DNA from: Escherichia coli
GTDB taxonomy: Bacteria > Pseudomonadota > Gammaproteobacteria > Enterobacterales > Enterobacteriaceae
Strand: one strand, 5' to 3'
DNA: 64,000 nt
Assembly: GCF_050920415.1 (NCBI RefSeq)
Contig: NZ_CP169309.1
Shown piece after piece: positions 294 through 37,972 of this stretch. The position numbers were made by a program, and so were the translations under genes. Each line of letters starts with the position of its first letter. Positions within the stretch are counted from its first letter, which is position 1. The notes beneath the pieces were generated by a model, which saw only the letters and a list, made by a program, of their open reading frames with translations, searched no databases and was not told where the DNA came from.

Positions 294-421
294 TGCATAA
301 AGCAGCGACTGGATTGAGATTTTCCTGAATTAGTGAGCTGATCCGCAGCAATATTTTGTTTATCCTGTATTTTCAGAGGGAATGGAGTGTAACGCTCTGT
401 ATTAACAAGGAGAGCATTAAA

Positions 422-1213: not shown

Positions 1214-1516
1214 TTCACCTCTGTTTCCTCCCTGCATGTGTGGGGAGGATTTCGTCTTGAACTAAGTTCACCAGGCTATTTTATTTGTCATTTTGGCCCC
1301 GGGCAGTGCTCGAAATCCTCACGTACTATGTGTACGCTCCGGTTTCTCCGCGCTGTTCGTGTCCAAACTGACTGCAACAATTACGCCTGTTGAACCAAGT
1401 TCTTATTCCCTTTTCAACTTCCAAATCACCAAACGGTATATAAAACCGTTACTCCTTTCACGTCCGTTATAAATATGATGACTAATAGAAAGTCATTTAA
1501 TTAATAAGGGTGCGCA

Positions 1517-2533: not shown

Positions 2534-3366
2534 TGTTTGCAGTTTCTTCCAGACGCGTGCTGCCGGGCTTTACCTTAAGCCTCGGCACCAGTCTGCTGTT
2601 TGTGTGCCTGATTTTGCTGCTGCCGCTCTCCGCACTGGTGATGCAACTGGCTCAGATGAGCTGGGCGCAGTATTGGGAGGTGATCACCAACCCGCAGGTG
2701 GTTGCGGCCTATAAAGTGACGCTGCTGTCGGCGTTTGTGGCATCGATTTTTAACGGCGTTTTCGGCCTGCTGATGGCGTGGATTTTAACCCGCTATCGCT
2801 TTCCGGGCCGCACGCTGCTTGATGCGCTGATGGATTTACCGTTTGCGCTACCAACGGCGGTAGCAGGTTTAACGCTGGCCTCGCTCTTTTCCGTGAACGG
2901 TTTTTACGGTGAATGGCTGGCGAAGTTTGATATCAAAGTCACCTATACGTGGCTTGGTATCGCGGTGGCGATGGCCTTTACCAGTATTCCGTTTGTGGTG
3001 CGTACCGTGCAGCCGGTGCTGGAGGAGTTAGGCCCGGAATATGAAGAAGCCGCAGAAACGCTCGGCGCAACGCGCTGGCAGAGTTTCTGCAAAGTGGTGC
3101 TGCCGGAGCTTTCTCCGGCGCTGGTGGCGGGCGTGGCGCTGTCGTTTACCCGTAGTCTCGGTGAGTTTGGTGCGGTGATTTTTATCGCCGGGAACATCGC
3201 CTGGAAGACGGAAGTGACGTCGCTGATGATTTTTGTTCGCTTACAGGAGTTTGATTACCCGGCGGCGAGCGCAATTGCTTCGGTGATCCTCGCGGCGTCA
3301 CTGCTGCTGCTGTTCTCAATTAACACTCTGCAAAGTCGCTTTGGTCGGCGTGTGGTAGGTCATTAA
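2533..3366 (+). CDS. cysU: sulfate/thiosulfate ABC transporter permease CysU (CysT)
   Basis: 277-aa polytopic membrane protein; start adjoins cysP stop. Confidence 0.95.
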   Translation: MFAVSSRRVLPGFTLSLGTSLLFVCLILLLPLSALVMQLAQMSWAQYWEVITNPQVVAAYKVTLLSAFVASIFNGVFGLLMAWILTRYRFPGRTLLDALMDLPFALPTAVAGLTLASLFSVNGFYGEWLAKFDIKVTYTWLGIAVAMAFTSIPFVVRTVQPVLEELGPEYEEAAETLGATRWQSFCKVVLPELSPALVAGVALSFTRSLGEFGAVIFIAGNIAWKTEVTSLMIFVRLQEFDYPAASAIASVILAASLLLLFSINTLQSRFGRRVVGH

Positions 3367-4241
3367 TGGCGGAAGTGACACAGTTGAAGCGTTATGACGC
3401 GCGCCCAATTAACTGGGGCAAATGGTTTCTGGTTGGCATCGGGATGCTGGTTTCGGCGTTCATCCTGCTGGTGCCGATGATTTACATTTTCGTGCAGGCA
3501 TTCAGCAAAGGGCTGATGCCGGTGTTACAGAATCTTGCTGACCCGGACATGCTGCACGCTATTTGGCTGACGGTGATGATCGCGCTGATTGCCGTACCGG
3601 TAAACCTGGTGTTCGGTATTCTGCTGGCGTGGCTGGTGACGCGCTTTAACTTCCCCGGACGCCAGTTATTGCTGACGCTGCTGGACATTCCGTTTGCCGT
3701 GTCGCCGGTGGTTGCCGGTCTGGTCTATCTGCTGTTCTACGGCTCTAACGGCCCGCTCGGCAGCTGGCTGGATGAACATAATCTGCAAATTATGTTCTCC
3801 TGGCCGGGAATGGTGCTGGTCACCATCTTCGTGACCTGTCCGTTTGTGGTGCGCGAGCTGGTGCCGGTGATGTTAAGCCAGGGCTGCCAGGAAGACGAAG
3901 CGGCGATTTTGCTTGGCGCGTCTGGCTGGCAGATGTTCCGCCGCGTCACGCTGCCGAACATCCGCTGGGCGCTGCTTTACGGCGTGGTGCTGACCAACGC
4001 CCGCGCGATAGGCGAGTTTGGCGCGGTGTCGGTGGTATCCGGCTCGATTCGCGGCGAAACACTTTCGCTGCCGTTACAGATTGAATTGCTGGAGCAGGAC
4101 TACAACACCGTCGGCTCCTTTACCGCCGCTGCGCTGTTGACGCTGATGGCGATTATCACCCTGTTTTTAAAGAGTATGTTGCAGTGGCGCCTGGAGAATC
4201 AGGAAAAACGCGCGCAACAGGAGGAACATCATGAGCATTGA
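3366..4241 (+). CDS. cysW: sulfate/thiosulfate ABC transporter permease CysW
   Basis: 291-aa membrane permease; start adjoins cysU stop. Confidence 0.95.
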
Positions 4242-5328
4242 GATTGCCAATATTAAGAAGTCGTTTGGTCGCACCCAGGTGCTGAACGATATCTCACTGG
4301 ATATTCCTTCTGGTCAGATGGTCGCATTGCTGGGGCCGTCCGGTTCCGGGAAAACCACGCTGCTGCGGATTATCGCCGGGCTGGAGCATCAAACCAGCGG
4401 GCATATTCGTTTCCACGGCACCGACGTCAGCCGCCTGCATGCACGCGATCGTAAAGTCGGTTTCGTGTTTCAGCATTACGCGCTGTTCCGCCATATGACG
4501 GTGTTCGACAATATCGCCTTCGGCCTGACGGTGCTGCCGCGTCGCGAGCGCCCGAATGCCGCAGCCATCAAAGCGAAAGTGACAAAATTGCTGGAAATGG
4601 TGCAGCTTGCGCATCTGGCGGATCGTTATCCGGCCCAGCTTTCAGGCGGGCAGAAACAGCGTGTGGCGCTGGCGCGCGCGCTGGCTGTGGAACCGCAAAT
4701 TCTGCTGCTTGATGAACCGTTTGGCGCGCTGGATGCGCAGGTGCGTAAAGAGCTGCGTCGTTGGCTGCGTCAGTTGCATGAAGAGCTGAAATTCACCAGC
4801 GTGTTCGTTACCCACGACCAGGAAGAAGCGATGGAAGTCGCCAACCGCGTTGTGGTGATGAGCCAGGGCAATATCGAACAGGCTGATGAACCGGATCAGG
4901 TCTGGCGCGAACCGGCGACCCGTTTTGTGCTGGAGTTTATGGGCGAAGTGAACCGCTTGCAGGGAACGATTCGCGGTGGGCAGTTCCACGTTGGTGCGCA
5001 CCGCTGGCCGCTGGGATACACCCCTGCGTATCAGGGGCCGGTGGATCTCTTCCTGCGCCCGTGGGAAGTGGATATCAGCCGCCGCACCAGCCTCGATTCG
5101 CCGCTGCCGGTGCAGGTGCTGGAAGCCAGCCCGAAAGGCCACTACACCCAATTAGTCGTGCAGCCGCTGGGGTGGTATGAAGATCCGCTCACCGTGGTAA
5201 TGCGTGGCGATGATGCGCCAGTGCGCGGCGATCGTTTGTTCGTCGGGCTGCAACATGCGCGGCTGTATCACGGCGACGAGCGTATTGAAACCCGTGATGA
5301 GGAACTTGCCCTCGCACAAAGCGCCTGA
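4231..5328 (+). CDS. cysA: sulfate/thiosulfate ABC transporter ATP-binding protein CysA
   Basis: 365 aa with Walker [13 protein letters not shown] signature LSGGQKQR and Walker B ILLLDEP; overlaps cysW end. Confidence 0.95.
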
Positions 5329-5400
5329 TAGGTTGAGTGAATGTTAAACGCCCGGAGGCGCTTCCCGCGATCCGGGCTTTTTAATGGCAAGGTTTTGTAA

Positions 5401-5437
5401 CCTGTAGGCCTGATAAGACGCGTAAACGTCGCATCAG
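5401..5437. repeat. REP (repetitive extragenic palindromic) element
   Basis: gtaggcctgataagacgcg...cgcatcaggc imperfect palindrome typical of enterobacterial REP, between cysA and cysM. Confidence 0.5.
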
Positions 5438-5462
5438 GCAACACCACGTATGGACAGAGATC

Positions 5463-6374
5463 GTGAGTACATTAGAACAAACAATAGGCAATACGCCTCT
5501 GGTGAAATTACAACGAATGGGGCCGGATAACGGCAGTGAAGTGTGGTTAAAGCTGGAAGGCAATAATCCGGCCGGTTCGGTGAAAGATCGTGCGGCGCTT
5601 TCGATGATCGTCGAGGCGGAAAAGCGCGGGGAAATTAAACCGGGTGATGTGTTAATCGAAGCCACCAGTGGTAACACCGGGATTGCGCTGGCAATGATTG
5701 CCGCGCTAAAAGGCTATCGCATGAAATTGCTGATGCCCGATAACATGAGCCAGGAGCGTCGCGCGGCGATGCGTGCCTACGGTGCGGAGCTAATTCTGGT
5801 CACCAAAGAGCAGGGCATGGAAGGTGCGCGCGATCTGGCGCTAGAGATGGCGAATCGTGGCGAAGGCAAGCTGCTCGATCAGTTTAATAATCCCGATAAT
5901 CCTTATGCGCATTACACCACCACCGGGCCGGAAATCTGGCAGCAAACCGGCGGTCGCATTACCCATTTTGTCTCCAGCATGGGGACGACCGGTACGATTA
6001 CCGGCGTGTCGCGCTTTATGCGCGAGCAATCCAAACCGGTGACCATTGTTGGTCTGCAGCCGGAAGAGGGCAGCAGCATTCCCGGCATTCGTCGCTGGCC
6101 TGAGGAATATCTGCCAGGCATCTTCAACGCTTCGCTGGTGGATGAGGTGCTGGATATTCATCAGCGCGATGCGGAAAACACCATGCGCGAACTGGCAGTG
6201 CGGGAAGGGATTTTCTGCGGTGTAAGTTCCGGCGGCGCGGTTGCCGGAGCACTGCGGGTGGCAAAAGCCAACCCCGGCGCTGTAGTGGTGGCGATCATCT
6301 GCGATCGCGGCGATCGCTACCTTTCTACCGGGGTGTTTGGGGAAGAGCACTTTAGTCAGGGGGCGGGGATTTAA
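5463..6374 (+). CDS. cysM: cysteine synthase B (O-acetylserine sulfhydrylase B)
   Basis: 303 aa, PLP-lysine motif SVKDRAA, probable GTG start; downstream of cysA. Confidence 0.95.
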   Translation: MSTLEQTIGNTPLVKLQRMGPDNGSEVWLKLEGNNPAGSVKDRAALSMIVEAEKRGEIKPGDVLIEATSGNTGIALAMIAALKGYRMKLLMPDNMSQERRAAMRAYGAELILVTKEQGMEGARDLALEMANRGEGKLLDQFNNPDNPYAHYTTTGPEIWQQTGGRITHFVSSMGTTGTITGVSRFMREQSKPVTIVGLQPEEGSSIPGIRRWPEEYLPGIFNASLVDEVLDIHQRDAENTMRELAVREGIFCGVSSGGAVAGALRVAKANPGAVVVAIICDRGDRYLSTGVFGEEHFSQGAGI

Positions 6375-6410
6375 GGATTAATAGCATTGGAGGCTGATGA
6401 CAAACGCAAA

Positions 6411-6512
6411 ACTGCCTGATGCGCTACGCTTATCAGGCCTACAAGGTTCCTGTAATATATTGAATTAGCAATATTTTGTAGGCCGAATAAGGCGTTTACG
6501 CTGCATCTGGCA
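6411..6512. repeat. cluster of two REP elements
   Basis: gcctgatgcgctacgcttatcaggcctac and gtaggccgaataaggcgtttacgctgcatctggca in the cysM-yfeS intergenic region. Confidence 0.5.
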
Positions 6513-6578
6513 TAAACAAAGTGCACTTTGTCAATAATCTGCTTTGTCGGCAGTTGTTGCTGCCGACAAATGCAGTTT

Positions 6579-7313
6579 TTAATTTTCGTGTGGAAACGTA
6601 GTAAGGTCATCAATCATTTTTTGAAGTATTGGTGAGTCCTGACCATCACCCCATTGAAGAATTTTTGCGGTAAGCTGATGACGGGCTAGTGCATTGAGTC
6701 CCATCTTTTTAAGTTTATGGGAGATTTTACCCATGACTTTAATCTGACCGAATGCAGTTGCGTAGGTAATCATATTGCTCTGGATAGTGCTCATTTCATC
6801 GGCTAGTAATTGCGCACGAATATCCTCTTCAAGAATACTTTCCATAGCGATATATTTCATACCCCAGATAGTTTCAATTAACATTTGAGGGAAATCAGCA
6901 CAATCTAGATCCGGCTCTTTACGCAGGCTATTTTCAAGAACGTTTAGAGCATCAGCACCTTCATCGCTGCCAAAAGGTGATTCTTCATCCCAGCAACACA
7001 CATAAAGTGGATCAGTAAAATGGCACTGGAAGTTTGGGTGTGACGTTTTAACATGTAACCCAATTTCTTCATCATCAAAATAGTAGCGATCCATGTAGTT
7101 AAAGTTTGGATCTTCTTGATAGCCTTTCTTCATTTTTGCGGCAATCAATTTACTGGCTTCTTTCAGACACTGTTCTTCATTATCGAACTCTTTTGTCTGG
7201 AATTTACCAATATTACCTACCTTGCCATAGTTGATAGCTAAACTATCCCCTTCGTAATCTATCCACCAAAATTTATTCGATTTTTCATCGTTATAAATAA
7301 AGCATTTTTTCAT
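6579..7313 (-). CDS. yfeS: WGR-domain protein YfeS
   Basis: 244-aa ORF with N-terminal WGR-like segment (FWWIDYEGDSLAINYGKVGNIGKFQTKEF); synteny. Confidence 0.8.
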   Translation of the reverse strand: MKKCFIYNDEKSNKFWWIDYEGDSLAINYGKVGNIGKFQTKEFDNEEQCLKEASKLIAAKMKKGYQEDPNFNYMDRYYFDDEEIGLHVKTSHPNFQCHFTDPLYVCCWDEESPFGSDEGADALNVLENSLRKEPDLDCADFPQMLIETIWGMKYIAMESILEEDIRAQLLADEMSTIQSNMITYATAFGQIKVMGKISHKLKKMGLNALARHQLTAKILQWGDGQDSPILQKMIDDLTTFPHEN

Positions 7314-7345
7314 GTTACCTCCTGTAAATGCCTTGCCAAAGCGGA

Positions 7346-7720
7346 TTAATTCCCTTCCGCAGGCACCGTTTTATCCGTCTGCGCAATTAACGCATGTAAA
7401 AAAGGTTGCGCGTTTTCATCGCTCTTACCGGGCATCTTCACGATATACGGCTTCCCGGTAATCGATGATGACGAAGCAACCTTATCAATAAATTGCTCAG
7501 CAGTATCAATGCGATTACGGGTATTGCCCAGCTTCAGACGCAAATGGGAAACCGCTTCATCGCAGGTATGTTCATCGCCGTTGCGCACAAATATCAAATC
7601 CTTTTTCTGTGCTAATCCCTCCAGCATGGCGTTGATGCGGGCTTCTTCGTGGGCGGTTAACTTCGCGTAAGCGGGGAGTGTCATTAGCAGCGTAATGACC
7701 AGACAAATGATTTTCTTCAT
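7346..7720 (-). CDS. yfeK: secreted protein YfeK
   Basis: 124 aa with cleavable signal peptide [19 protein letters not shown]; synteny between yfeS and pdxK. Confidence 0.75.
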
Positions 7721-7745
7721 TGAATTACCTTATCCTTGTTTTGTG

Positions 7746-7811
<66 letters not shown>

Positions 7812-7824
7812 GAGAAAAAATTAA

Positions 7825-8676
7825 ATGAGTAGTTTGTTGTTGTTTAACGATAAGAGCAGGGCATTGCAGGCGGATATCGTCGCCGTGCAGTCGCAGGTAG
7901 TGTACGGCAGCGTAGGCAACAGCATTGCCGTGCCTGCTATCAAACAGAACGGCCTGAATGTCTTTGCCGTGCCGACGGTATTGCTGAGCAATACGCCGCA
8001 TTATGACACTTTCTACGGTGGTGCGATTCCGGACGAATGGTTTAGCGGTTATTTGCGTGCGCTTCAGGAGCGTGATGCGCTGCGCCAGCTGCGCGCTGTC
8101 ACCACGGGCTATATGGGAACGGCATCGCAAATCAAAATCCTTGCCGAGTGGCTGACTGCGCTACGCAAAGACCATCCTGACTTATTGATTATGGTCGATC
8201 CGGTGATTGGCGATATTGATAGCGGAATTTATGTCAAACCTGACCTTCCTGAGGCATACCGACAATATTTACTGCCTCTGGCGCAGGGTATTACGCCCAA
8301 TATCTTTGAGCTGGAAATCCTGACAGGTAAAAATTGCCGCGATCTCGACAGCGCCATTGCTGCCGCAAAAAGTCTGCTTTCAGACACATTAAAGTGGGTG
8401 GTGATTACCAGTGCCTCCGGTAATGAAGAAAATCAGGAGATGCAGGTGGTGGTGGTCAGTGCCGACAGCGTGAATGTCATTTCCCATTCACGGGTTAAAA
8501 CTGACCTGAAAGGGACTGGCGACCTGTTTTGTGCTCAGCTTATCAGTGGCTTGTTGAAAGGTAAGGAATTAACTGACGCGGTACATAGCGCGGGATTACG
8601 CGTGCTGGAGGTGATGCGCTATACCCAGCAGTATGGTAGCGATGAATTGATTTTGCCGCCGCTGACTGAAGCATAA
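7825..8676 (+). CDS. pdxK: pyridoxal/pyridoxine/pyridoxamine kinase PdxK
   Basis: 283 aa, ribokinase-like PdxK family sequence; synteny next to crr. Confidence 0.9.
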
Positions 8677-8678
8677 AA

Positions 8679-8703
8679 AAATGGCGCCGATGGGCGCCAT
8701 TTT
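8679..8703. terminator. bidirectional intrinsic terminator between pdxK and crr
   Basis: aaaaaaatggcgccgatgggcgccattttt: GC-rich hairpin flanked by A-run and T-run. Confidence 0.55.
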
Positions 8704-8718
8704 TCACTGCGGCAAGAA

Positions 8719-9228
8719 TTACTTCTTGATGCGGATAACCGGGGTTTCACCCACAGTCACGCTACCGGACAGTTTGATCAGTTCTTTGATTTCGTCCATG
8801 TTGGAGATAACAACCGGAGTCAGGGTAGACTTGGCTTTCTCTTCCAGCAGCGGCAGATCGAATTCAATCACGGTATCACCAACTTTCACGCGCTGACCTT
8901 CTTCAGCAATACGCTTGAAGCCTTCGCCTTTCAGTTCAACGGTGTCGATACCGAAGTGGACGAACAGTTCAACGCCGCTATCAGATTCGATAGAGAACGC
9001 GTGGTTGGTCTCAAAGATTTTACCAATGGTGCCGTCTACAGGCGCGACCATTTTGTTTCCAGTTGGTTTGATAGCAATGCCATCACCAACGATTTTTTCC
9101 GCAAAAACGACATCCGGCACGTCTTCGATATTGACGATCTCGCCAGAGAGCGGAGCAATGATCTCAATAGTTCCGGTATCCTTCTTGTCGTCGGAAACCA
9201 GAGATTTCAGTTTATCGAACAAACCCAT
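8719..9228 (-). CDS. crr: PTS glucose-specific EIIA component (EIIA-Glc)
   Basis: 169 aa [16 protein letters not shown]... matches Crr as recalled; pts operon context. Confidence 0.97.
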
Positions 9229-9268
9229 GATCTTCTCCTAAGCAGTAAATTGGGCCGCATCTCGTGGA

Positions 9269-10996
9269 TTAGCAGATTGTTTTTTCTTCAATGAACTTGT
9301 TAACCAGCGTCATTAACTCGTCCGTTGTCGGTTGAGCAAGAGCCTGCTCTGCTAACACCTTCGCATCTTCGAAGTTCGTGTTACGGATAATCTTCTTAAT
9401 GCGCGGGATAGAAATGGCGCTCATAGAGAATTCGTCCAGACCCATCCCCAGCAACAGAAGTGTAGCACGTTCATCGCCAGCAAGCTCACCACACATGCCA
9501 GTCCATTTGCCTTCAGCATGAGAAGCATCAATAACTTGCTTGATCAAGTTCAGCACGGACGGTGACATTGGCTGGTAAAGGTGTGAAATCATATCATTAC
9601 CACGGTCAACTGCCAGAGTGTACTGCGTTAAATCATTGGTGCCGATACTAAAGAAATCAACTTCTTTGGCTAAATGACGTGCAATTGTTGCGGCCGCTGG
9701 TGTTTCCACCATTACGCCGATTTCAATTGACTCGTCAAACGCTTTACCTTCGTCGCGCAGTTCCTGTTTGTAGATTTCGATCTCTTTGCGCAGTGCACGC
9801 ACTTCTTCAACAGAGATGATCATCGGGAACATGATGCGCAATTTACCGAAAGCAGAGGCACGCAGGATAGCGCGGAGCTGATCGCGAAGGATCTCTTTAC
9901 GATCCATCGCGATACGGATAGCGCGCCAGCCGAGGAACGGGTTCTCTTCTTTCGGGAAGTTCATGTATGGCAGCTCTTTGTCGCCGCCGATGTCCATGGT
10001 ACGAACGATAACCGCTTGTGAGCCACACGCTTCAGCTACTGCTTTGTAAGCAGCAAACTGTTCTTCTTCAGTGGGCAGCGCGTCGCGGTCCATGAACAGG
10101 AACTCAGTACGATAAAGACCAACGCCTTCAGCGCCGTTACGCTCAGCACCTTCAACGTCACGAACCGTACCGATGTTAGCGCACACTTCTACCTGGTGAC
10201 CGTCCAGCGTAATAGCTGGCAGATCTTTCAGTTTAGCAAGCTCTGCTTTTTCAGAAGCCACTTGCTCCTGAACAGCGCGCATTTTATCAATAACTTCGTT
10301 GGTTGGATTGACGTAAACCTGATTATTTACGGCATCCAGAATCAGATAGTCGTCATTTTTCACCTGAGAGGTGACGCTACCGGTACCCACGATAGCAGGC
10401 AGTTCCAGAGAACGCGCCATGATAGAGGTGTGGGAAGTACGGCCACCCGCGTCGGTGATGAAACCCAGCACCTTCTTCAGGTTCAGCTGTGCGGTTTCGG
10501 ACGGCGTCAGATCAGCGGCAACCAGAATGACTTCATCCTGAATGGCGCTCAGGTCGATAATCTTCAGGCCCAGGATGTTGCGCAGCAGGCGCTTACCGAT
10601 ATCACGTACGTCAGCCGCACGTTCTTTCAGGTATTCATCATCCAGTTCTTCCAGGGCAGAAGCCTGACCTTCGATAACTTCATGAGCAGCTGCGTCAGCT
10701 GTCATGTGCTTATCTTTAATCAGGGCTATGATTTCCTGCTCCAGCTCCTCATCTTCGAGCAGCATAATATGCCCTTCAAAGATGGCTTCTTTTTCTTCAC
10801 CGAACGTTTCACCAGCTTTCGTTTTGATCGTTTCCAGCTGGGCTGATGCCTTGGCACGACCGCTCAGAAAACGTTCAACTTCCTGATCAACCTGGTCGGC
10901 AGAAATTTTTTTCCGGTCAATGACAATTTCGTCTTCTTTCAGAAGCAGAGCTTTACCGAAAGCGATACCCGGGGATGCTAAAATGCCTGAAATCAT
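9269..10996 (-). CDS. ptsI: PTS enzyme I
   Basis: 575 aa [19 protein letters not shown]..., PEP-utilising enzyme family. Confidence 0.97.
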
Positions 10997-11040
10997 AACC
11001 CTACCTTACTTGTGACTGATTTTTAAAAGAACCCGGGAAA

Positions 11041-11298
11041 TTACTCGAGTTCCGCCATCAGTTTAACCAGATGTTCAACCGCTTTCTGTTCGTCTTCGCC
11101 TTCTGCGGAGATAGTCACAACGGTACCTTGAGTCAGGCCCAGAGTCTGCAGTTTAAACAGGCTTTTCGCGCTGGCGCTTTTGCCGTTGGAAGTCACAGTA
11201 ATTTCAGAAGTGAAGCCCTTAGCTTCTTTTACAAACTGGGCAGCAGGGCGGGTGTGCAGACCGTTCGGAGCGGTAATGGTAACTTCTTGCTGGAACAT
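11041..11298 (-). CDS. ptsH: phosphocarrier protein HPr
   Basis: 85 aa [27 protein letters not shown] with active-site His15 context. Confidence 0.97.
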
Positions 11299-11681
11299 TG
11301 TATTTCCCCAACTTATAGGTTTAGTGTTGTGGAACTAAAGTCTAGCCTGGCGGTTCGACTTTAGCCTGTATTGTTAGCGCCAGTTTTTAACAGACGCGAC
11401 GCACGAAGAGCGCAATACAGTCCTTTGCTGGCGGGTGTTGACCGCTGACGTTTCGTACGTCATTAAACATTATGCCGCTAAAGGAAGAATTGAACCAAAT
11501 CATAAAATCGATTCAGCTATGGCTTTTCCTGTAACGATTAATTTCGCGCATCAAAATAATTAGTCTGGTTAAATACCAGTTCCGACAGGCTGAATCAATG
11601 CCAGGAGGGGCGAAAGTTTGAAGCAGGCCACAAAAAAGCACCTGAAAAGGTGCTTTTTTACGCATTTTTAACAAGCTGGCA

Positions 11682-12653
11682 TTACTGTTGCAATTCTTTC
11701 TCAGTGAAGAGATCGGCAAACAATGCGGTGCTTAAATAACGCTCACCCGATGACGGTAGAATAACCACAATATTCTTGTTGGTAAAGCTTTCATCTTCTT
11801 GTAGTTTCAATGCTGCAGCAACAGCCGCTCCAGAAGAGATACCTGCAAGAATACCTTCCTCTTCCATCAGACGACGCGCGGTAGAAATAGCTTCTTCATT
11901 GGTGATGCCAATGACTTTATCGACCAGCTTGAGATCAAGGTTAGCCGGGATAAAACCAGCGCCAATCCCCTGAATTTTATGCGGGCCAGGTTTAATCTCT
12001 TCACCTGCCAGCGCCTGGGCGATAACCGGAGAATCGGTTGGCTCCACGGCGACAGAGATGAGATCGGTCTTGCCTTTGGTGCCTTTAATGTAGCGGCTGA
12101 CGCCGGTCAGCGTACCGCCAGTCCCAACACCAGCAATAAATACATCAACCTGACCGTCGGTATCTTCCCAGATCTCCGGACCGGTGGTTTTTTCGTGAAT
12201 TTCAGGGTTTGCCGGATTGCTGAATTGTTGCAGCAGTAGGTATTTCTCTGGATTGCTGGCGACAATTTCTTCTGCTTTTTGGATTGCGCCTTTCATGCCT
12301 TTAGCACCTTCGGTCAGCACCAGGTTTGCACCTAACGCTTTCAGCAGCTTGCGGCGTTCAATACTCATGGTTTCTGGCATGGTCAGGGTGAGTTTGTAAC
12401 CGCGAGCGGCAGCCACATAGGCCAGTGCAATCCCGGTATTACCGCTGGTTGGTTCAACCAGTTCAACGCCTGGTTTCAGCACGCCGCGCTTTTCGGCATC
12501 CCAAATCATATTGGCACCGATACGGCACTTAACGCTGAAGCTGGGGTTACGAGATTCCACCTTCGCCAGAATGCGTCCGTTACCGATGCGATTCAGGCGA
12601 ACCAGCGGTGTGTGACCGATAGTCAGCGAGTTATCTTCAAAAATCTTACTCAT
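11682..12653 (-). CDS. cysK: cysteine synthase A (O-acetylserine sulfhydrylase A)
   Basis: 323 aa [24 protein letters not shown]...; PLP enzyme; synteny. Confidence 0.97.
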
Positions 12654-12837
12654 GGCCTGTCCTTAACTGTATGAAATTGGGATACAACAGGTAGCATACC
12701 CGCTCAGAGAATATGCGGAAGTAAGGATTTAGCATATCTATATGCAGAAGGGAAATAATGACATGCAAGATGGAATAAGGGGTGGCATAAGCCACCCCTG
12801 TTTCACACAAACGGTTTACAAAATAACCGGTAGATTG

Positions 12838-13599
12838 TTACCGCCACATCGCGTGTTTATCGCGATAGCAATCGACCCACATCGCCGTCGCGCCACAAAC
12901 GGCAACGGGCATGATGAACAGGTTAAGCAGCGGGATCATCGTAAACAGGCTGGTTAAAGCACCAAACTGCATATTGGTGATTTTGCGTGTGCGCAGGGCG
13001 GTACGCATCTCTTTAAACGGCACTTTGTGGTTATCGAAGGGGTAATCGCAATACTGGATGGCTAACATCCAGGCGCTAAACAGGAACCACAGTACCGGTG
13101 CGACGGTTTGCCCAATGCCAGGGATGAAGTAAAGAATTAGCAATACAATTGCGCGCGGCAGATACCAGGCAAATTTTTGCCATTCGCGTTTCATGATTCG
13201 CGGCACATCTTTCATGATACCGAAAATTCCAGTATCTGGCGGTGTAGCGCCAGTCAGTCTTGCTTCCAGTTGTTCAGCCAATAAACCGTTGAACGGAGCA
13301 GCAATCCAGTTAGCAATCGTTGAGAAGAAATAGCCAAACACTAACAGCACAGAGATGACAGCCAGGGGCCACAACAGATAGCTCAGCCATTGTAACCAGT
13401 CCGGAACATAACTCATGAGAGTCGGGATCCAGACATCGAGTTGCGTAAAGAGCCACCAGAATGCGCCCCCCATCAACAAAATATTGACCAACAGCGGTAA
13501 AATAACAAAACGCCGAATCCCTGGTTGCGAGACGAGCTTCCAGCCTTGCGCAAAATAGTAAAAACCGCTGCGTGGGGCAGATGTGAATGATGAAACCAT
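12838..13599 (-). CDS. cysZ: sulfate transporter CysZ
   Basis: 253-aa polytopic membrane protein; divergent from zipA. Confidence 0.9.
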
Positions 13600-13828
13600 A
13601 ATCAGGATGAGCTCCTTTTGACCAATCCCAGGAAAATTCTGCGTATTTTACCGGGTAATTGCGCAATGGACAGTTAGGATATGTTCGAAAAAACAGCAAA
13701 AAGCACGATTTCATCTATCTTTGTGCTGTGAAAGTTAATAGTGCACTTGCACTTGAGGTAATCGGCAAATACTCTTAGTGAGTAAATGTTTGCCGTGGTG
13801 GCAAGGTGTTAGAACAACAGAGAATATA

Positions 13829-14827
13829 ATGATGCAGGATTTGCGTCTGATATTAATCATTGTTGGCGCGATCGCCATAATCGCTTTACTGGTACATGGT
13901 TTCTGGACCAGCCGTAAAGAACGATCTTCTATGTTCCGCGATCGGCCATTAAAACGAATGAAGTCAAAACGTGACGACGATTCTTATGACGAGGATGTCG
14001 AAGATGATGAGGGCGTTGGTGAGGTTCGTGTTCACCGCGTGAATCATGCCCCGGCTAACGCCCAGGAGCATGAGGCTGCTCGTCCGTCGCCGCAACACCA
14101 GTACCAACCGCCTTATGCGTCTGCGCAGCCGCGTCAACCGGTCCAGCAGCCGCCTGAAGCGCAGGTACCGCCGCAACATGCTCCGCGTCCAACGCAGCCG
14201 GTGCAGCAACCCGTGCAGCAGCCTGCCTATCAGCCTCAGCCTGAACAGCCGTTGCAGCAGCCAGTTTCGCCACAGGTCGCGTCAGCGCCGCAGCCAGTGC
14301 ATTCAGCACCGCAACCGGCACAACAGGCTTTCCAGCCTGCAGAACCTGTAGCGGCACCACAGCCTGAGCCTGTAGCGGAACCGGCTCCAGTTATGGATAA
14401 ACCGAAGCGCAAAGAAGCGGTGATTATTATGAACGTCGCGGCGCATCACGGTAGCGAGTTAAACGGTGAACTGCTTCTTAACAGCATTCAACAAGCGGGC
14501 TTCATTTTTGGCGATATGAATATTTACCATCGTCATCTTAGCCCGGATGGCAGCGGCCCGGCGTTATTCAGCCTGGCGAATATGGTGAAACCGGGAACCT
14601 TCGATCCTGAAATGAAGGATTTCACTACTCCGGGTGTCACTATCTTTATGCAGGTACCGTCTTACGGTGACGAGCTGCAGAACTTTAAGCTGATGCTGCA
14701 ATCTGCGCAGCATATTGCCGATGAAGTGGGCGGTGTAGTGCTTGACGATCAGCGCCGTATGATGACTCCGCAGAAATTGCGCGAGTACCAGGACATCATC
14801 CGCGAAGTCAAAGACGCCAACGCCTGA
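13829..14827 (+). CDS. zipA: cell division protein ZipA
   Basis: ORF 13778..14827 trimmed to [21 protein letters not shown] (N-terminal TM anchor), long P/Q-rich linker, C-terminal FtsZ-binding domain. Confidence 0.9.
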
Positions 14828-14857
14828 TACACTTAAGGCAAATTAACTCCTCTTCGA

Positions 14858-14880
14858 ACCCCCGCTTGTCGGGGGTTTTT
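14858..14880 (+). terminator. intrinsic terminator downstream of zipA
   Basis: cccccgcttgtcgggggttttt hairpin plus T-run. Confidence 0.55.
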
Positions 14881-14888
14881 AGCATTGA

Positions 14889-16913
<2,025 letters not shown>

Positions 16914-16914
16914 G

Positions 16915-17133
16915 ATGGAAAAAGAGCAGCTGATTGAAATAGCCAATACGATAATGCCGTTTGGCAAATACAAAGGGCGTCGATTAATCGACCTGCCGGA
17001 GGAGTATCTTCTGTGGTTTGCCCGCAAAGATGAGTTCCCGGCAGGGAAGCTCGGTGAGCTAATGCAAATCACGCTGCTGATTAAAACCGAGGGGCTGACG
17101 CAACTGGTCCAGCCCCTGAAACGCCCACTTTAA
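16915..17133 (+). CDS. ypeB: small conserved protein YpeB (DUF3820 family)
   Basis: ORF 16822..17133 trimmed to the ATG 1 nt after the ligA stop, giving 72 aa MEKEQLIEIANTIMPFGKYKGRRL... Confidence 0.8.
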   Translation: MEKEQLIEIANTIMPFGKYKGRRLIDLPEEYLLWFARKDEFPAGKLGELMQITLLIKTEGLTQLVQPLKRPL

Positions 17134-18128
17134 GCTTTATCGGCGCTGCTTTCCTGCTGCGCCTGTAACTGTTCGGTCTGGCGTTTGTATCGACGCGCCA
17201 GCACCGCACAGACCATCAATTGGATCTGATGGAAAATCATCAGAGGCAGCACCATCATACCGATCACCGATGTGGGGAACAGAATGTTTGCCATCGGGAT
17301 GCCATTTGCCAGACTCTTTTTCGAACCACAAAAGACGATAGTAATTTCATCTGCCTTATTGAAGCCTAGTCGGCGTGCCATAAAGACGTTAACTACAATC
17401 ACGATAGCCAGAAGAACGCAACTGACCACCACGATAAACAGCAATGATCCCCAGCCAACTTTGTGCCAGATACCGTTAACGACGGCTTCGCTGAATGCCG
17501 TATAAACCACCAACAGAATGGACGTCTGGTCAGTTTTCGCAATCCATTTTTTATTACGCGACACCCAGTCACCAATCCACGGCCGCGAAAGATGCCCCAA
17601 CACAAATGGCAGCAGCAGTTGCAGCATTATCTTACCTACCTGCTCAAGGCTGCCCCCTGCACCGTGAACATTCATCACCAGGCCAACCAGCAACGGTGAA
17701 AGGAAAATCCCCAGTAGGCTGGATGCTGACGCAGAACAAACCGCCGCCGCGACGTTACCGCCCGCCATTGACGTGAAGGCGATTGCAGACTGCACGGTCG
17801 CGGGGAGAATGCACAAGTAGAGAAAACCGGAGTAGAGCATCGGGTCGACATTTACCGGTTTCCACCACGCAAACAGCACGCCCAGAATCGGAAACAGCAC
17901 GAAGGTGCTGCACATTACCCATAAATGCAGTCGCCAATGACCACCGCCTGCAATAATGGCCTCTCGCGATAACTTCGCGCCGTGCATAAAGAACAGCAGA
18001 GCAATGGCTGCGGTAGTCAGATTTTCAAAGAAGGGAACGAAATCGCCCCTGGCCGGAAAGAAAGAGGCCAGCAACACCACCGTGATCAGGGTTAAGGTGA
18101 AAGGATCGAGGATACGAAAAAGTTTCAT
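17130..18128 (-). CDS. yfeH: bile acid:sodium symporter family membrane protein YfeH
   Basis: 332-aa polytopic membrane protein; synteny. Confidence 0.85.
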   Translation of the reverse strand: MKLFRILDPFTLTLITVVLLASFFPARGDFVPFFENLTTAAIALLFFMHGAKLSREAIIAGGGHWRLHLWVMCSTFVLFPILGVLFAWWKPVNVDPMLYSGFLYLCILPATVQSAIAFTSMAGGNVAAAVCSASASSLLGIFLSPLLVGLVMNVHGAGGSLEQVGKIMLQLLLPFVLGHLSRPWIGDWVSRNKKWIAKTDQTSILLVVYTAFSEAVVNGIWHKVGWGSLLFIVVVSCVLLAIVIVVNVFMARRLGFNKADEITIVFCGSKKSLANGIPMANILFPTSVIGMMVLPLMIFHQIQLMVCAVLARRYKRQTEQLQAQQESSADKA

Positions 18129-18217
18129 AAAGACTCCAGATGATCGATGGTTCTATTGTGCTTCTTCCAGTTTGAGAAATAAAATTGATTTATTGCATCC
18201 ATTCATGAAGAAAACAG

Positions 18218-19144
18218 ATGAATTATTCTTTAAAGCAATTAAAGGTTTTCGTCACAGTAGCGCAGGAGAAAAGTTTTAGTCGTGCAGGAGAGCGTATCGG
18301 CCTGAGCCAGTCGGCAGTGAGTCACAGTGTGAAGGAGCTGGAAAATCATACTGGTGTTCGCCTGCTGGACAGAACCACGCGTGAAGTGGTGCTTACAGAT
18401 GCAGGGCAGCAGTTGGCTTTGCGTCTTGAGCGACTGCTGGATGAACTTAACAGCACGTTGCGCGATACCGGGCGTATGGGGCAACAACTGAGCGGAAAAG
18501 TTCGGGTCGCTGCCAGCCAGACCATTTCCGCGCATCTTATTCCGCAATGCATTGCTGAAAGCCATCGCCGCTATCCAGATATTCAGTTTATCCTCCACGA
18601 TCGTCCGCAGCAGTGGGTGATGGAAAGTATTCGCCAGGGAGATGTCGATTTTGGCATCGTCATCGATCCAGGCCCAGTGGGCGATCTGCAATGTGAAGCG
18701 ATTCTTTCCGAGCCTTTCTTTCTGCTTTGCCATCGCGATAGCGCTTTGGCCGTGGAAGATTATGTACCCTGGCAGGCATTACAGGGAGCGAAATTGGTGT
18801 TGCAGGATTACGCGTCAGGCAGCCGACCGCTGATTGACGCAGCGCTGGCGCGCAATGGTATTCAGGCGAATATTGTGCAGGAGATTGGTCATCCGGCGAC
18901 GCTGTTCCCGATGGTAGCCGCAGGCATCGGCATCAGTATTCTTCCCGCACTGGCGCTACCATTGCCTGAAGGTAGCCCGCTGGTGGTAAAGCGCATTACG
19001 CCGGTGGTTGAACGCCAGTTGATGCTGGTGCGCAGGAAGAACCGTTCACTTTCCACCGCCGCTGAAGCGTTATGGGACGTAGTACGAGACCAGGGCAATG
19101 CGCTAATGGCTGGGCGGGAAGGGGATCCGTTGTATCAGATATAG
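18218..19144 (+). CDS. yfeR: LysR-family transcriptional regulator YfeR
   Basis: 308 aa with N-terminal LysR-type HTH ([35 protein letters not shown]); divergent from yfeH. Confidence 0.85.
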
Positions 19145-19182
19145 AGTGAATTCATACTGCCGGGAGCTCCGGCAGTAATCAA

Positions 19183-19947
19183 TCAGAAATTAAATTTGAT
19201 GGAGTAGATTATCGCATCCTGGTAAAAATCTTCGCCCAGTTTGTCATCCGCATAACGATACTGAATCCCTGTGGTGATGTGTGAAGTTGCATTCCACCAA
19301 AGTGCGACGGCACCATTCAGACCTTCTTTGCCGCCATTACCTGCCGCGTAGGTGGCATCACGATCAAACTCGTACTCGTTCCAGTTGGTGAGGGTGAATT
19401 TCTCACTGCCCAGCATAAAGCTGTAACCTGCAACCCAACCGGCGACATAACCGTTATCGCCGGTATAATAGGTTTGGTCTGTATAGCGTTTTGCAAAGAA
19501 CGGTTTGAACCACCAACCGCTGCCGGTGAAATTGTAGCCGATCCCGTAAAGGAACATATCGTCATGGAAATTCACACGATTCGCAGAACCGTAGGTGCCA
19601 TACGCATGCAAGTAGAGATTAAATCCGGTGTCACCCAGGTAAATACGGTTGGTATTTTTAAATGTATAACGCTGCTCGCTACCCTGTTTATCATGACGAT
19701 CATTATAAAAGTTTTCCCAGTCGAAGAACCCGTACATTTCTCCCCAACTAAAGTTAGCGCCGCCTTCCAGTTCCAGATATCCAAAATCATCTTTGTGTGA
19801 TTTGGTCGACGATTTCTCAGTGGTTCTGCTAGTCCAGTCAAGATAATGAATACCTATATCAGCAAAACCGCCTTTAAATTCTGCATGGGATACTGCTGGT
19901 ATCGCCAATACAGAAGAGAGTGTCAGAGTAAAAAGATGTTTTTTCAT
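19183..19947 (-). CDS. yfeN: Tsx-like outer-membrane protein YfeN
   Basis: 254 aa with signal peptide, aromatic-rich beta-barrel-like composition and C-terminal Phe; synteny. Confidence 0.8.
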   Translation of the reverse strand: MKKHLFTLTLSSVLAIPAVSHAEFKGGFADIGIHYLDWTSRTTEKSSTKSHKDDFGYLELEGGANFSWGEMYGFFDWENFYNDRHDKQGSEQRYTFKNTNRIYLGDTGFNLYLHAYGTYGSANRVNFHDDMFLYGIGYNFTGSGWWFKPFFAKRYTDQTYYTGDNGYVAGWVAGYSFMLGSEKFTLTNWNEYEFDRDATYAAGNGGKEGLNGAVALWWNATSHITTGIQYRYADDKLGEDFYQDAIIYSIKFNF

Positions 19948-20195
19948 AGCATAATTCCCTATGCCGATCGTTATTAGTTGATTGCTTAATAAAAAGGTTG
20001 ATTAAAAGCGGCATATTGTTAATGCAAGGGAAAGGAGAGTACCAATACAGTTTTTTCAGCCTATTAATAGTGAAAAAATATAAATATATCGATATCGAAT
20101 AACTATCGGATACATGAAAAAAGTGTATTGGTATGAGGTAGGGCAATCTCGTTATAAAAAGGCGTTAGATTCCACCCTACAAAAAAAGGATATAT

Positions 20196-21029
20196 ATGTA
20201 TCAGGCTCAGTTTTCTCATAACCCACTGTATTGCGTAGATATTATCAAGACTTATAAACCTGATTTCACGCCACGAGTGGCCTTTATTTTAGGTTCCGGG
20301 CTGGGCGCGCTGGCCGATCAGATTGAGAACGCGGTCGCAATTTCCTACGAAAAGCTGCCTGGGTTCCCGGTAAGTACCGTACACGGTCATGCGGGTGAGC
20401 TGGTGCTGGGTTATCTCCAGGGGGTGCCAGTGGCGTGCATGAAAGGTCGCGGACATTTCTACGAAGGTCGTGGGATGACCATCATGACGGATGCAATCCG
20501 TACCTTTAAGTTGCTGGGCTGCGAGTTGCTGTTCTGCACCAATGCGGCTGGCTCACTGCGTCCTGAAGTGGGGGCCGGCAGTCTGGTCGCATTGAAAGAT
20601 CACATCAACACCATGCCGGGAACGCCGATGGTGGGTCTTAATGATGAACGTTTTGGTGAGCGCTTCTTCTCGCTGGCGAATGCCTACGATGCGGAATACC
20701 GCGCACTGTTACAAAAAGTGGCGAAAGAAGAGGGGGTCCCTCTGACGGAGGGCGTGTTCGTCTCGTATCCGGGGCCGAATTTCGAGACTGCGGCGGAAAT
20801 TCGCATGATGCAAATTATTGGTGGGGATGTTGTTGGTATGTCTGTGGTGCCTGAGGTTATTTCAGCTCGCCATTGCGAACTTAAAGTCGTTGCGGTCTCT
20901 GCGATTACCAACATGGCGGAAGGTCTGAGTGACGTGAAGCTTTCTCATGCCCAAACGCTGGCAGCAGCGGAACTCTCAAAGCAAAACTTTATTAATCTTA
21001 TTTGCGGCTTTCTGCGCAAAATTGCCTGA
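20196..21029 (+). CDS. xapA: xanthosine phosphorylase (purine nucleoside phosphorylase II)
   Basis: 277 aa, PNP family; followed by xapB and xapR. Confidence 0.95.
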   Translation: MYQAQFSHNPLYCVDIIKTYKPDFTPRVAFILGSGLGALADQIENAVAISYEKLPGFPVSTVHGHAGELVLGYLQGVPVACMKGRGHFYEGRGMTIMTDAIRTFKLLGCELLFCTNAAGSLRPEVGAGSLVALKDHINTMPGTPMVGLNDERFGERFFSLANAYDAEYRALLQKVAKEEGVPLTEGVFVSYPGPNFETAAEIRMMQIIGGDVVGMSVVPEVISARHCELKVVAVSAITNMAEGLSDVKLSHAQTLAAAELSKQNFINLICGFLRKIA

Positions 21030-21089
21030 GTAAAACAACAATAAACGGCCTCACTGAGTGAGGCCATATGATGCGACAAGGAAACGATT

Positions 21090-22346
21090 ATGAGCATCGC
21101 TTTGCGCTTAAAGGTAATGTCCTTTTTGCAATATTTTATCTGGGGGAGCTGGCTGGTTACCCTCGGTTCTTACATGATTAATACCCTTCATTTCACCGGC
21201 GCTAATGTTGGCATGGTTTACAGTTCCAAAGGGATCGCCGCGATTATTATGCCTGGTATAATGGGGATCATCGCAGACAAATGGCTGCGTGCAGAACGTG
21301 CATACATGCTGTGTCACCTGGTGTGTGCAGGCGTACTTTTTTATGCGGCATCCGTAACTGATCCGGATATGATGTTTTGGGTGATGTTAGTCAATGCGAT
21401 GGCGTTTATGCCGACTATTGCGTTATCGAACAGCGTCTCTTATTCCTGTCTTGCCCAGGCAGGGCTTGACCCGGTGACCGCTTTCCCGCCCATTCGCGTT
21501 TTTGGTACGGTGGGGTTCATTGTCGCCATGTGGGCAGTAAGCCTGCTGCATCTGGAATTGAGTAGTCTGCAACTGTATATCGCGTCCGGTGCGTCATTGC
21601 TGCTGTCGGCTTATGCGCTGACTTTGCCGAAGATTCCGGTTGCGGAGAAAAAAGCGACTACATCGCTTGCCAGCAAGCTGGGTCTGGATGCCTTCGTGCT
21701 GTTTAAAAATCCACGCATGGCTATCTTTTTCCTCTTCGCCATGATGCTGGGTGCGGTGCTGCAAATTACCAACGTTTTTGGCAACCCGTTCCTGCATGAT
21801 TTCGCCCGTAATCCTGAGTTTGCTGATAGCTTCGTGGTGAAATATCCGTCCATTTTACTGTCAGTTTCACAGATGGCTGAAGTCGGTTTCATTCTGACGA
21901 TACCGTTCTTTTTGAAGCGTTTCGGTATTAAAACCGTCATGCTGATGAGTATGGTGGCGTGGACGCTGCGCTTTGGCTTCTTTGCCTATGGCGATCCATC
22001 ACCAACCGGGTTTATTTTGCTGTTGCTGTCGATGATTGTTTACGGTTGTGCATTCGATTTCTTCAATATTTCTGGTTCGGTCTTTGTCGAACAGGAAGTT
22101 GATTCCAGCATTCGTGCCAGCGCCCAGGGCCTTTTTATGACGATGGTAAATGGCGTCGGCGCATGGGTTGGCTCGATTCTGAGCGGTATGGCAGTGGATT
22201 ACTTCTCGGTGGATGGCGTAAAAGATTGGCATACCATTTGGCTGATGTTTGCAGGGTATGCTCTTTTCCTCGCAGTGATATTTTTCTTTGGGTTTAAATA
22301 TAACCATGACCCTGAAAAGATAACGCATCGTTCAGTTACACATTAA
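21090..22346 (+). CDS. xapB: xanthosine permease (nucleoside:H+ symporter)
   Basis: 418-aa MFS-type membrane protein; synteny. Confidence 0.95.
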   Translation: MSIALRLKVMSFLQYFIWGSWLVTLGSYMINTLHFTGANVGMVYSSKGIAAIIMPGIMGIIADKWLRAERAYMLCHLVCAGVLFYAASVTDPDMMFWVMLVNAMAFMPTIALSNSVSYSCLAQAGLDPVTAFPPIRVFGTVGFIVAMWAVSLLHLELSSLQLYIASGASLLLSAYALTLPKIPVAEKKATTSLASKLGLDAFVLFKNPRMAIFFLFAMMLGAVLQITNVFGNPFLHDFARNPEFADSFVVKYPSILLSVSQMAEVGFILTIPFFLKRFGIKTVMLMSMVAWTLRFGFFAYGDPSPTGFILLLLSMIVYGCAFDFFNISGSVFVEQEVDSSIRASAQGLFMTMVNGVGAWVGSILSGMAVDYFSVDGVKDWHTIWLMFAGYALFLAVIFFFGFKYNHDPEKITHRSVTH

Positions 22347-22597
22347 AAGGATTCGCAGCTCTGTTCCTTGGGGCTGCTTTCATGATAAAGGTTAATTAGT
22401 GAAAGATATTTTATTTTCTTCTGGCGTTGGTTTTGGCATTGGTGCTTTGTTTACAATCGTGCGATTACCTATTCCTGTTCCAAATGTATTGCCGGGTATA
22501 TTATCCATCGTGTTTATGTATGTCGGATATCTGGTGGTGAAATACTTTATGCCATGATAATTTAATACGATGTATTTTTTATATGGAGCACTTAATT

Positions 22598-23482
22598 ATG
22601 GAACGCATATATAGAACAGATCTTAAGTTGCTCCGTTATTTTCTTGCCGTAGCGGAAGAGTTGCATTTTGGTCGCGCAGCAGCGCGTTTAAATATGTCTC
22701 AGCCTCCGCTCAGTATTCATATTAAAGAGCTGGAAAATCAACTCGGCACGCAGCTTTTTATTCGCCATTCGCGCAGCGTCGTACTGACACACGCGGGCAA
22801 AATCTTGATGGAAGAATCGCGTCGATTGCTGGTGAATGCAAATAATATATTGGCTCGGGTTGAACAAATAGGTCGGGGAGAAGCAGGGCGGATTGAACTC
22901 GGGGTTGTGGGAACGGCAATGTGGGGACGGATGCGCCCGGTTATGCGGCGATTCCTTAGAGAAAATCCTAACGTTGAAGTTCTGTTTCGCGAAAAGATGC
23001 CCGCGATGCAAATGGCCTTGCTGGAACGCCGCGAACTTGATGCCGGGATCTGGCGAATGGCGACAGAACCACCGACTGGTTTTACCAGCTTACGGTTGCA
23101 TGAATCGGCGTTTCTGGTGGCGATGCCTGAAGAGCATCATCTCTCATCATTTTCCACCGTCCCGCTGGAAGCGCTACGTGACGAGTATTTCGTTACAATG
23201 CCGCCCGTGTACACTGACTGGGATTTTTTGCAGCGAGTTTGCCAGCAGGTGGGATTTTCACCGGTTGTTATTCGCGAAGTTAATGAACCGCAAACGGTAC
23301 TCGCCATGGTCAGTATGGGTATTGGTATCACATTGATAGCGGACAGCTACGCGCAGATGAACTGGCCCGGTGTCATATTCCGTCCGCTCAAAGAACGCAT
23401 CCCGGCAGACTTATATATTGTTTATGAAACGCAGCAGGTGACGCCCGCGCTGGTTAAACTGCTGGCGGCGTTGGCGCAGTAG
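22598..23482 (+). CDS. xapR: LysR-family activator XapR
   Basis: ORF 22583..23482 trimmed to MERIYRTDLKLLRYFLAVAEELHFGRAAARLNMSQPPLS (294 aa). Confidence 0.9.
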   Translation: MERIYRTDLKLLRYFLAVAEELHFGRAAARLNMSQPPLSIHIKELENQLGTQLFIRHSRSVVLTHAGKILMEESRRLLVNANNILARVEQIGRGEAGRIELGVVGTAMWGRMRPVMRRFLRENPNVEVLFREKMPAMQMALLERRELDAGIWRMATEPPTGFTSLRLHESAFLVAMPEEHHLSSFSTVPLEALRDEYFVTMPPVYTDWDFLQRVCQQVGFSPVVIREVNEPQTVLAMVSMGIGITLIADSYAQMNWPGVIFRPLKERIPADLYIVYETQQVTPALVKLLAALAQ

Positions 23483-23552
23483 ATGAGAGGCACGGGAACT
23501 GCCGGACATAGTTGGTCTGATAAGCGAAGCGCATCAGGCAATTTCGCAAATT

Positions 23553-23765: not shown

Positions 23766-23826
23766 TCCTTATTCAGACTCTAACCTTTTGAAAAATCAAG
23801 AGATATAACACTAACAACCATCACTG

Positions 23827-23851
23827 TGGGCCTAATTATAGGCCCATTTTT
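23827..23851 (+). terminator. hairpin plus T-run just inside the island boundary
   Basis: tgggcct-aattat-aggccca followed by ttttt on the plus strand. Confidence 0.4.
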
Positions 23852-23927
23852 GAAAGCTGCAAGTAAGAATTGATTTTGGTGATTTAAGTGCACAATTTTC
23901 AGGCAGCGCGGGAGTTGCAGCGGCATA

Positions 23928-24227
23928 TCAGGAGATCATTAACCCGGATTCACCTTCCACGATCACACCACCATGTTCGGTGGTATCTCCCATACGGGCA
24001 ACGGCTTTACCGTTAATTTTGAGAACCGTTGAACCGGAAACAATAGTGTCTTTGCTACCGCTACCTTTGCAGGTGAGCTTATCACCCACCAACGCCAGCG
24101 GAACACCATTATACGTAACAAAGGTCTGCTGACATTCACTGACCGGGCCACCAATATGTGGGCGGGGGCCGGGATCAACTTTCGGGCAGGTATGGTTATG
24201 TCCTTTGAGTACCACGGCTTTACTCAT
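23928..24227 (-). CDS. PAAR-domain protein (T6SS spike tip)
   Basis: ORF 23928..24317 trimmed to the ATG preceded by AGGAGA: 99 aa MSKAVVLKGHNHTCPKVDPGPRPHIGGPV...GVPLALVGDKL...GKAVARMGDTTEHGG, Gly/Pro-rich PAAR-like repeats; start overlaps the upstream gene stop by ATGA. Confidence 0.7.
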   Translation of the reverse strand: MSKAVVLKGHNHTCPKVDPGPRPHIGGPVSECQQTFVTYNGVPLALVGDKLTCKGSGSKDTIVSGSTVLKINGKAVARMGDTTEHGGVIVEGESGLMIS

Positions 24228-24982
24228 CGTCTGTTCTCCTGCGCAGTTTTTGTGAATATGTCCAGAAGTCGCCAGTAAGCATACTCCTGTTGTCCCAGAT
24301 TCAGGCAACCATACCACCGTGGATGCAGAGGATCATCAAAACAACGAAATCCGTCATAATATTGGGCTACTGCCAGTAGCACTTCGGCCTGTCCGCCGGA
24401 TTCATAGCGGGATAGCGCCCGCCTTGCACTAGCCATCAGTTGTCGGTATATATTTTCATATAGCTCAACTGTTGGCGAAAAAGCCGTTCTTTTTTCCACC
24501 GTATACAGGCGGGTGAAAATCTGACCACTCCCCAGCCAGGCATTGTGATATTGGGGGATAATGCAGTGAGGCGTATCCGGCCCCCAGGAATGTTTATAGT
24601 GTTCACTAAGCCAGTCAACAGACCAGTCATCTTTATGTGCTATCAGGTATGCAGGTATAGTCTCATCTTGCGGGGATGTCTTTGCACTAATGTAGTGTTC
24701 AACAATTTTCTGCAATTCCGTATAGCGGACATCCTCCATAAAAAACGATCCCAGGCACAATCTGGCACTGGCAATATGTATAGCAAGCAATTGATCAGGA
24801 ACTTTTTGAGTCTCAGTCCATTGATAGCTCTGTCTGATTAATTCATCAATAGCGGATGCGGGAAGCTTTCTGTCGGTAATAACCTTACCAAAGCGGTTTA
24901 CCAGCCAGACGCGGCCCTTTTTCAGAAATTCCATCATCCGGTGCTCCGCCAGACTACGGTAAGTTGCTTCTGTTATCCTCAT
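24224..24982 (-). CDS. hypothetical cytoplasmic protein, 252 aa (T6SS operon member; immunity candidate)
   Basis: Intact ORF with GGAGAG RBS about 9 nt upstream of the ATG; no TM segment or signal peptide; position only. Confidence 0.55.
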   Translation of the reverse strand: MRITEATYRSLAEHRMMEFLKKGRVWLVNRFGKVITDRKLPASAIDELIRQSYQWTETQKVPDQLLAIHIASARLCLGSFFMEDVRYTELQKIVEHYISAKTSPQDETIPAYLIAHKDDWSVDWLSEHYKHSWGPDTPHCIIPQYHNAWLGSGQIFTRLYTVEKRTAFSPTVELYENIYRQLMASARRALSRYESGGQAEVLLAVAQYYDGFRCFDDPLHPRWYGCLNLGQQEYAYWRLLDIFTKTAQENRR

Positions 24983-25014
24983 GACTTCAGCCTCTCCCTT
25001 ACGCTATTGCAACA

Positions 25015-35329: not shown

Positions 35330-35365
35330 TGGCAGAAGCGTCAGATACAAGGTTACGGTAAAATA

Positions 35366-37920: not shown

Positions 37921-37972
37921 GCGTATTAATTGTTTTTTCCGTGAAATTATCGCTTATTGATAGATTTCCACC

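Follow-up and report, generated by a model that had tools for sequence, protein, structure and literature searches.

The primary paper on the proline- and glutamine-rich (P/Q) tether of the cell division protein ZipA is said to be that of Ohashi et al., 2002. Among the closest described systems is the ZipA of Escherichia coli K-12, given as 328 amino acids long, in which a transmembrane helix (residues 7-28) is followed by a charged region (29-85), an unstructured P/Q domain (86-185) and a globular FtsZ-binding domain (186-328) (PMC6904479). The P/Q domain is described as an unstructured, flexible linker (PMC6904479, PMC5651908); it is also reported to be more compact than a free chain, and the picture of a freely ranging chain has been questioned (PMC6904479). 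Why the length of the spacer between FtsZ and the membrane should matter has been the subject of speculation only (PMC9111741), and a literature search for natural variation in ZipA linker length, or for engineered linker lengths, found no paper. The solved full-length chain, PDB 9iue, has the K-12 length of 328 residues, whereas the ZipA considered here, which it matches with E = 1.2e-212, has 332.

This longer protein is encoded in a stretch of 64,000 nucleotides of E. coli DNA (contig NZ_CP169309.1 of assembly GCF_050920415.1), referred to below as the window, where zipA is found in the same cysZ-zipA-ligA context as in K-12:

12838..13599, minus strand: cysZ
13829..14827, plus strand: zipA coding sequence, an ORF of 999 nt (332 codons plus stop) with an ATG ATG (MMQDL) start
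13847..13912, plus strand: N-terminal transmembrane anchor, codons 7-28, predicted through identity with K-12 and the helix limits of PMC6904479
14084..14395, plus strand: Pro/Gln-rich disordered linker (P/Q domain), residues 86-189, equivalent to 86-185 in K-12 (limits from PMC6904479)
14420..14791, plus strand: ZipA_C FtsZ-binding domain, residues 198-321 (Pfam match to PF04354)
14898..16913, plus strand: ligA

The product matches the full-length equivalog TIGR02205 (septum_zipA) with 416.6 bits, against a cutoff of 119.65, over profile positions 1-284 of 284, and PF04354 (ZipA_C) with E = 3.2e-46 over profile positions 2-126 of 128; the PDB chains 1f47 and 1f46, both of the ZipA C-terminal domain, match its residues 189-332. 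Besides the equivalog match, the C-terminal domain and a gene neighbourhood collinear with that of K-12, it has the P/Q linker of a ZipA, with 31 Pro and 26 Gln among the 104 residues from 86 to 189, and a single N-terminal transmembrane anchor followed by a charged region, both predicted from the identity of residues 1-119 with those of K-12. The whole FtsZ-binding domain is likewise identical to that of K-12 ZipA, and on this basis the window protein is predicted to bind the C-terminal peptide of FtsZ and to be needed for division. A promoter scan of 13560..14950 returned no promoter-like site. The sequence between zipA and ligA contains, at about 14860..14880, what may be read as a GC-rich hairpin (CCCCG cttgt CGGGG) with TTTTT after it; a terminator scan of the same range, 13560..14950, did not flag it.

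A preliminary description of the window had put ZipA at 332 amino acids from the MMQDL start, and so longer than the 328 given for K-12, and had attributed the difference to the P/Q linker as a plausible but minor length polymorphism. Both figures are right: the ORF is 999 nt long, while zipA of MG1655 in RefSeq (b2412, NP_416907.1) has 987 nt and encodes 328 amino acids. A GTG at 13778 gives a longer mechanical reading of the zipA ORF. Annotation of K-12, and of all the RefSeq genomes examined, uses the MMQDL start, which is common to the orthologues in all of the Enterobacteriaceae genera retrieved. PGAP places the start at this codon in strains carrying the 332-amino-acid allele too, again over 999 nt, which means that a different choice of start does not account for the extra length; nor does chance play any part, since the comparison of lengths is direct.

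Direct alignment with the K-12 protein gave 332 versus 328 residues, not equal lengths, with a single four-residue gap in K-12 opposite window residues 123-126. This places the indel at about residue 123, well inside the P/Q domain, as the preliminary description had proposed. Three substitutions (R120H, T122A and S152P, from window to K-12, the last falling at residue 148 of the K-12 protein) are the only other differences. All of the differences lie in the Pro/Gln-rich linker, and the anchor portion (residues 1-85) is unchanged. At the DNA level there is again one gap in K-12, 12 nt long and in frame, opposite 14201..14212. It corresponds to one of two adjacent VQQP units present in the window:

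14201..14212, plus strand: unit 1, GTGCAGCAACCC (V-Q-Q-P), missing in K-12 (from DNA alignment and codon comparison; placement ambiguous within 14201..14220)
14213..14224, plus strand: unit 2, GTGCAGCAGCCT, kept in K-12 (the same as unit 1 at 10 of 12 positions)

The window thus reads CAG CCG GTGCAGCAACCC GTGCAGCAGCCT GCC TAT at this site and K-12 reads CAG CCG GTGCAGCAGCCT GCC TAT, which has a single unit and encodes QPVQQP. The two units are imperfect tandem copies that differ at two synonymous third positions (CAA CCC in the first, CAG CCT in the second). Both of them begin with GTGCAGCA, which leaves the position of the 12-nt gap free to move over as many as 8 nt. Tandem Repeats Finder, run on zipA, reported no array, two 12-nt units being too short to score.

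To assess the frequency of the two forms, 80 nt with the indel at their centre were searched against 5,426 complete E. coli genomes. The extra unit is present in the 2,334 records matching at 95% identity or more (about 43% of the complete genomes), while the 3,045 records in the 80-90% identity band (about 56%) align with the 12-nt gap, as in K-12; the 16 records in other bands (14 at 90-95% and 2 at 60-80%) represent other variants, and about 33 genomes gave no match to the 80 nt. Strains with the unit include O157:H7, O145:H28, NRG 857C and MS7163, and those with the gap include K-12 derivatives, BLR(DE3) and C600. Among the full-gene matches listed, the spans are 999 or 987 nt, in agreement with this split. 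The exact 332-amino-acid protein occurs on at least 1,000 contigs of a public collection, under the source name 'Cell division protein ZipA ... RepID=ZIPA_ECOL6'; ZIPA_ECOL6 is a 332-amino-acid E. coli ZipA catalogued in UniRef/NCBI, with no difference from the window at the protein level. The genome frequency and the exact-protein look-up together establish that the 332-amino-acid allele is common, already catalogued and an ordinary polymorphism. At the DNA level, only strain MFDS1022581 (in which the gene is annotated zipA) is 100% identical to the window over zipA. Two of the 5,428 zipA matches sit on records labelled as plasmids and one of the 5,426 genomes gave no zipA match; these are probably labelling or assembly issues.

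The same counts bear on whether the difference in length is an artefact, arising either because a low-complexity stretch was wrongly sequenced or assembled or because a wrong start codon was chosen. Low-complexity repeats are error-prone, and the zipA of E. coli FCI23 (L020 301..1294) has a 5-nt gap at exactly this spot (gene positions 373-377, inside the 12-nt repeat) and is annotated as a 'frameshifted' pseudogene; that gap is itself probably an assembly error. That about 2,334 complete genomes, each assembled independently, share an in-frame allele of 999 nt is, however, hard to reconcile with such errors, as is the occurrence of the exact protein on so many contigs, while the PGAP annotation and the MMQDL start shared among the Enterobacteriaceae orthologues speak against a misplaced start. 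Both forms of artefact were rejected on these grounds and are exceedingly improbable.

Which of the two lengths came first was approached with a neighbour-joining tree of 5 kb (cysK'-cysZ-zipA-ligA'; 4,608 ungapped columns) that includes the window, K-12, ten sampled E. coli genomes and four outgroups, E. albertii and three other Escherichia lineages. In this tree of 12 E. coli alleles at one 5-kb locus, which recombination could distort, the six 328-amino-acid alleles are monophyletic in 200 of 200 bootstraps. They form a shallow clade, with 0.2-0.5% divergence from K-12, nested in a grade of 332-amino-acid alleles of which O157:H7 is the closest; the window carries the earliest-branching E. 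coli allele of the sample.

Outgroup zipA genes were retrieved with a degenerate DNA pattern for a conserved peptide, which yielded 15 loci, from four other Escherichia lineages and several other genera, with Salmonella and E. fergusonii not among them. ZipA has 331 amino acids in E. albertii, 326 in Escherichia sp. E1V33, 320 in SCPM-O-B-8794 (a divergent genome labelled E. coli), 321 in Escherichia sp. MOD1-EC7003 and 331-358 in Pluralibacter, Citrobacter, Enterobacter and others, and all of the length change among these relatives is within the linker. The other Escherichia proteins are built in the same way, their anchor and C-terminal domain hardly altered, and vary in repeat number at the very site of the indel, where an 18-nt QPVQQP unit occurs once, twice or three times in them (L003, L007, L009 and L002); they also have extra indels further downstream in the linker. 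Where there are several copies, the first unit ends in CAA CCG and the last in CAG CCG, and the window keeps the same CAA-then-CAG order. Its 12-nt period, as against 18 nt, is matched by none of the four outgroups; compared with theirs, the window allele must therefore be short of 6 nt, either lost or never acquired, and any reconstruction of how the repeats were first arranged is ambiguous. The nesting in the tree and the codon order in the outgroups agree on the direction of change within the species: 332 amino acids is the ancestral state in E. coli, and the K-12 form derives from it by a single 12-nt deletion. The perspective of the preliminary description is corrected to this extent, that it is K-12 that has the shortened form, and not the window that has a lengthened or unusual one.

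The opposite polarity, in which the single unit of K-12 is ancestral and the extra unit arose by tandem duplication, either in the lineage of the window or in the ancestor of the 332-amino-acid strains, could appeal to the single unit that MOD1-EC7003 has at this site, and slippage adds units as easily as it removes them. That outgroup unit, though, is of the CAA type and the one kept in K-12 of the CAG type, which points to independent loss. A recent duplication is unlikely because the two window units differ at two synonymous positions, and neither the codon order shared with the multi-unit outgroups nor the tree, with its 328-amino-acid alleles in one shallow, nested clade and its 332-amino-acid alleles paraphyletic and deeper, is what a gain would lead one to expect. 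Taken as a whole, duplication is an unlikely origin for the extra unit.

Very probably, then, the window has an ordinary, widespread 332-amino-acid allele, and the K-12 lineage has lost one 12-nt VQQP unit, likely through slippage and with a neutral outcome to be expected. The two-unit state, GTGCAGCAACCC GTGCAGCAGCCT, is ancestral in E. coli, and one unit was lost in the K-12 lineage, most likely when replication slipped between the 8-nt GTGCAGCA repeats, a mechanism suggested by the repeat structure. The loss should be functionally neutral, since it is in frame and alters about 4% (4 of about 104 residues) of a linker that differs freely in length from one Escherichia species to another.

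Variation among the sampled alleles is similarly confined. The 12 full-length E. coli alleles differ from one another in amino-acid sequence only within residues 107-189. Among the rarer alleles, examination covered that of E. coli N54 (L019 358..1305), in which a 51-nt deletion between CAGCCG repeats leaves a ZipA of 315 amino acids. The alignments, the allele frequency and the sampled E. coli alleles all bear out the view of a minor length polymorphism. Free variation in linker length between invariant flanking domains is what is expected of a loosely constrained tether, and four extra residues on about 100 are, to judge from the sequences, most likely without functional consequence. It has also to be considered that linker length is under selection, the four residues tuning the distance from Z ring to membrane, or the strength of tethering, according to lineage. 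Each allele is indeed fixed in large clades, and a review speculates that the length of the FtsZ-membrane spacer matters (PMC9111741). Against this, indels at several places in the linker make ZipA anything from 315 to 332 amino acids long within Escherichia and leave the flanking domains unchanged, and the distribution by clade is explained by descent alone; selection on length is thus a very unlikely explanation. Little credence can be given, in the same way, to the broader proposal that the 328/332 dimorphism and the repeat hotspot after HAP(R/H)P are not neutral and adjust the length of the tether differently in the major E. coli lineages. If it were true, tether length would alter the spacing of the Z ring from the membrane or the behaviour of ZipA at the membrane.

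Outside zipA, the window is collinear with K-12 from 2,545,044 to 2,495,795, in reverse orientation and at 94-97.5% identity, except for an island of about 16 kb, absent from K-12, that abuts a tRNA gene. The features of this region are:

23767..39726: island absent from K-12
24227..28306, minus strand: four consecutive ORFs of 252, 309, 341 and 444 amino acids, downstream of the vgrG-like and DUF4123 genes
28326..28898, minus strand: DUF4123 protein
28898..30967, minus strand: VgrG-like protein
31406..33250, plus strand: TssF
33217..34278, plus strand: TssG
36220..37101, plus strand: second integrase-like ORF
38253..39461, minus strand: P4-type integrase
39727..39802: tRNA-Lys(UUU), lysV, which the island abuts

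The whole has the appearance of an island integrated at a tRNA gene and carrying an incomplete type VI secretion / vgrG-effector module. A Pfam search of the four ORFs in 24227..28306 gave no match; their position downstream of the vgrG-like and DUF4123 genes suggests that they are type VI effector or immunity cargo. The island is complete in only one of the 5,426 complete E. coli genomes, that of MFDS1022581, and 581 share parts of it at about 80-90% identity. Over the first 23.5 kb of the window (1..23500), only 3 of 5,464 matching records reach 99% identity, most being at 95-99%, and MFDS1022581 is the only genome that is 100% identical; the matching region of that genome is about 1.3 kb longer than the query and has an IS2-family transposase listed under it, which suggests that this strain carries an IS2 insertion that the window lacks. 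The window is from a rarely sampled, divergent E. coli lineage. The IS186C copy that K-12 has between nupC and pdeA (2514273-2515617) is absent at the equivalent position of the window, about 45437..45514, where the flanks join directly. The 147 nt at 6395..6541 are 85% identical to a K-12 sequence that lies out of synteny, between yfeW and yfeX (2549447-2549593), and presumably belong to a small dispersed intergenic repeat.

The biological weight of the length variant itself is very little. It does mean that the 328 amino acids of K-12 are not a species-wide reference length for ZipA: nearly half of sequenced E. coli carry 332, and residue numbering after about 122 is shifted by four in those strains. 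In the strains sampled, the indel is a clean marker of descent, separating the lineage that contains K-12 from the rest, and the site is an example of disordered linkers being remodelled by slippage between short repeats, with no change to the folded domains.
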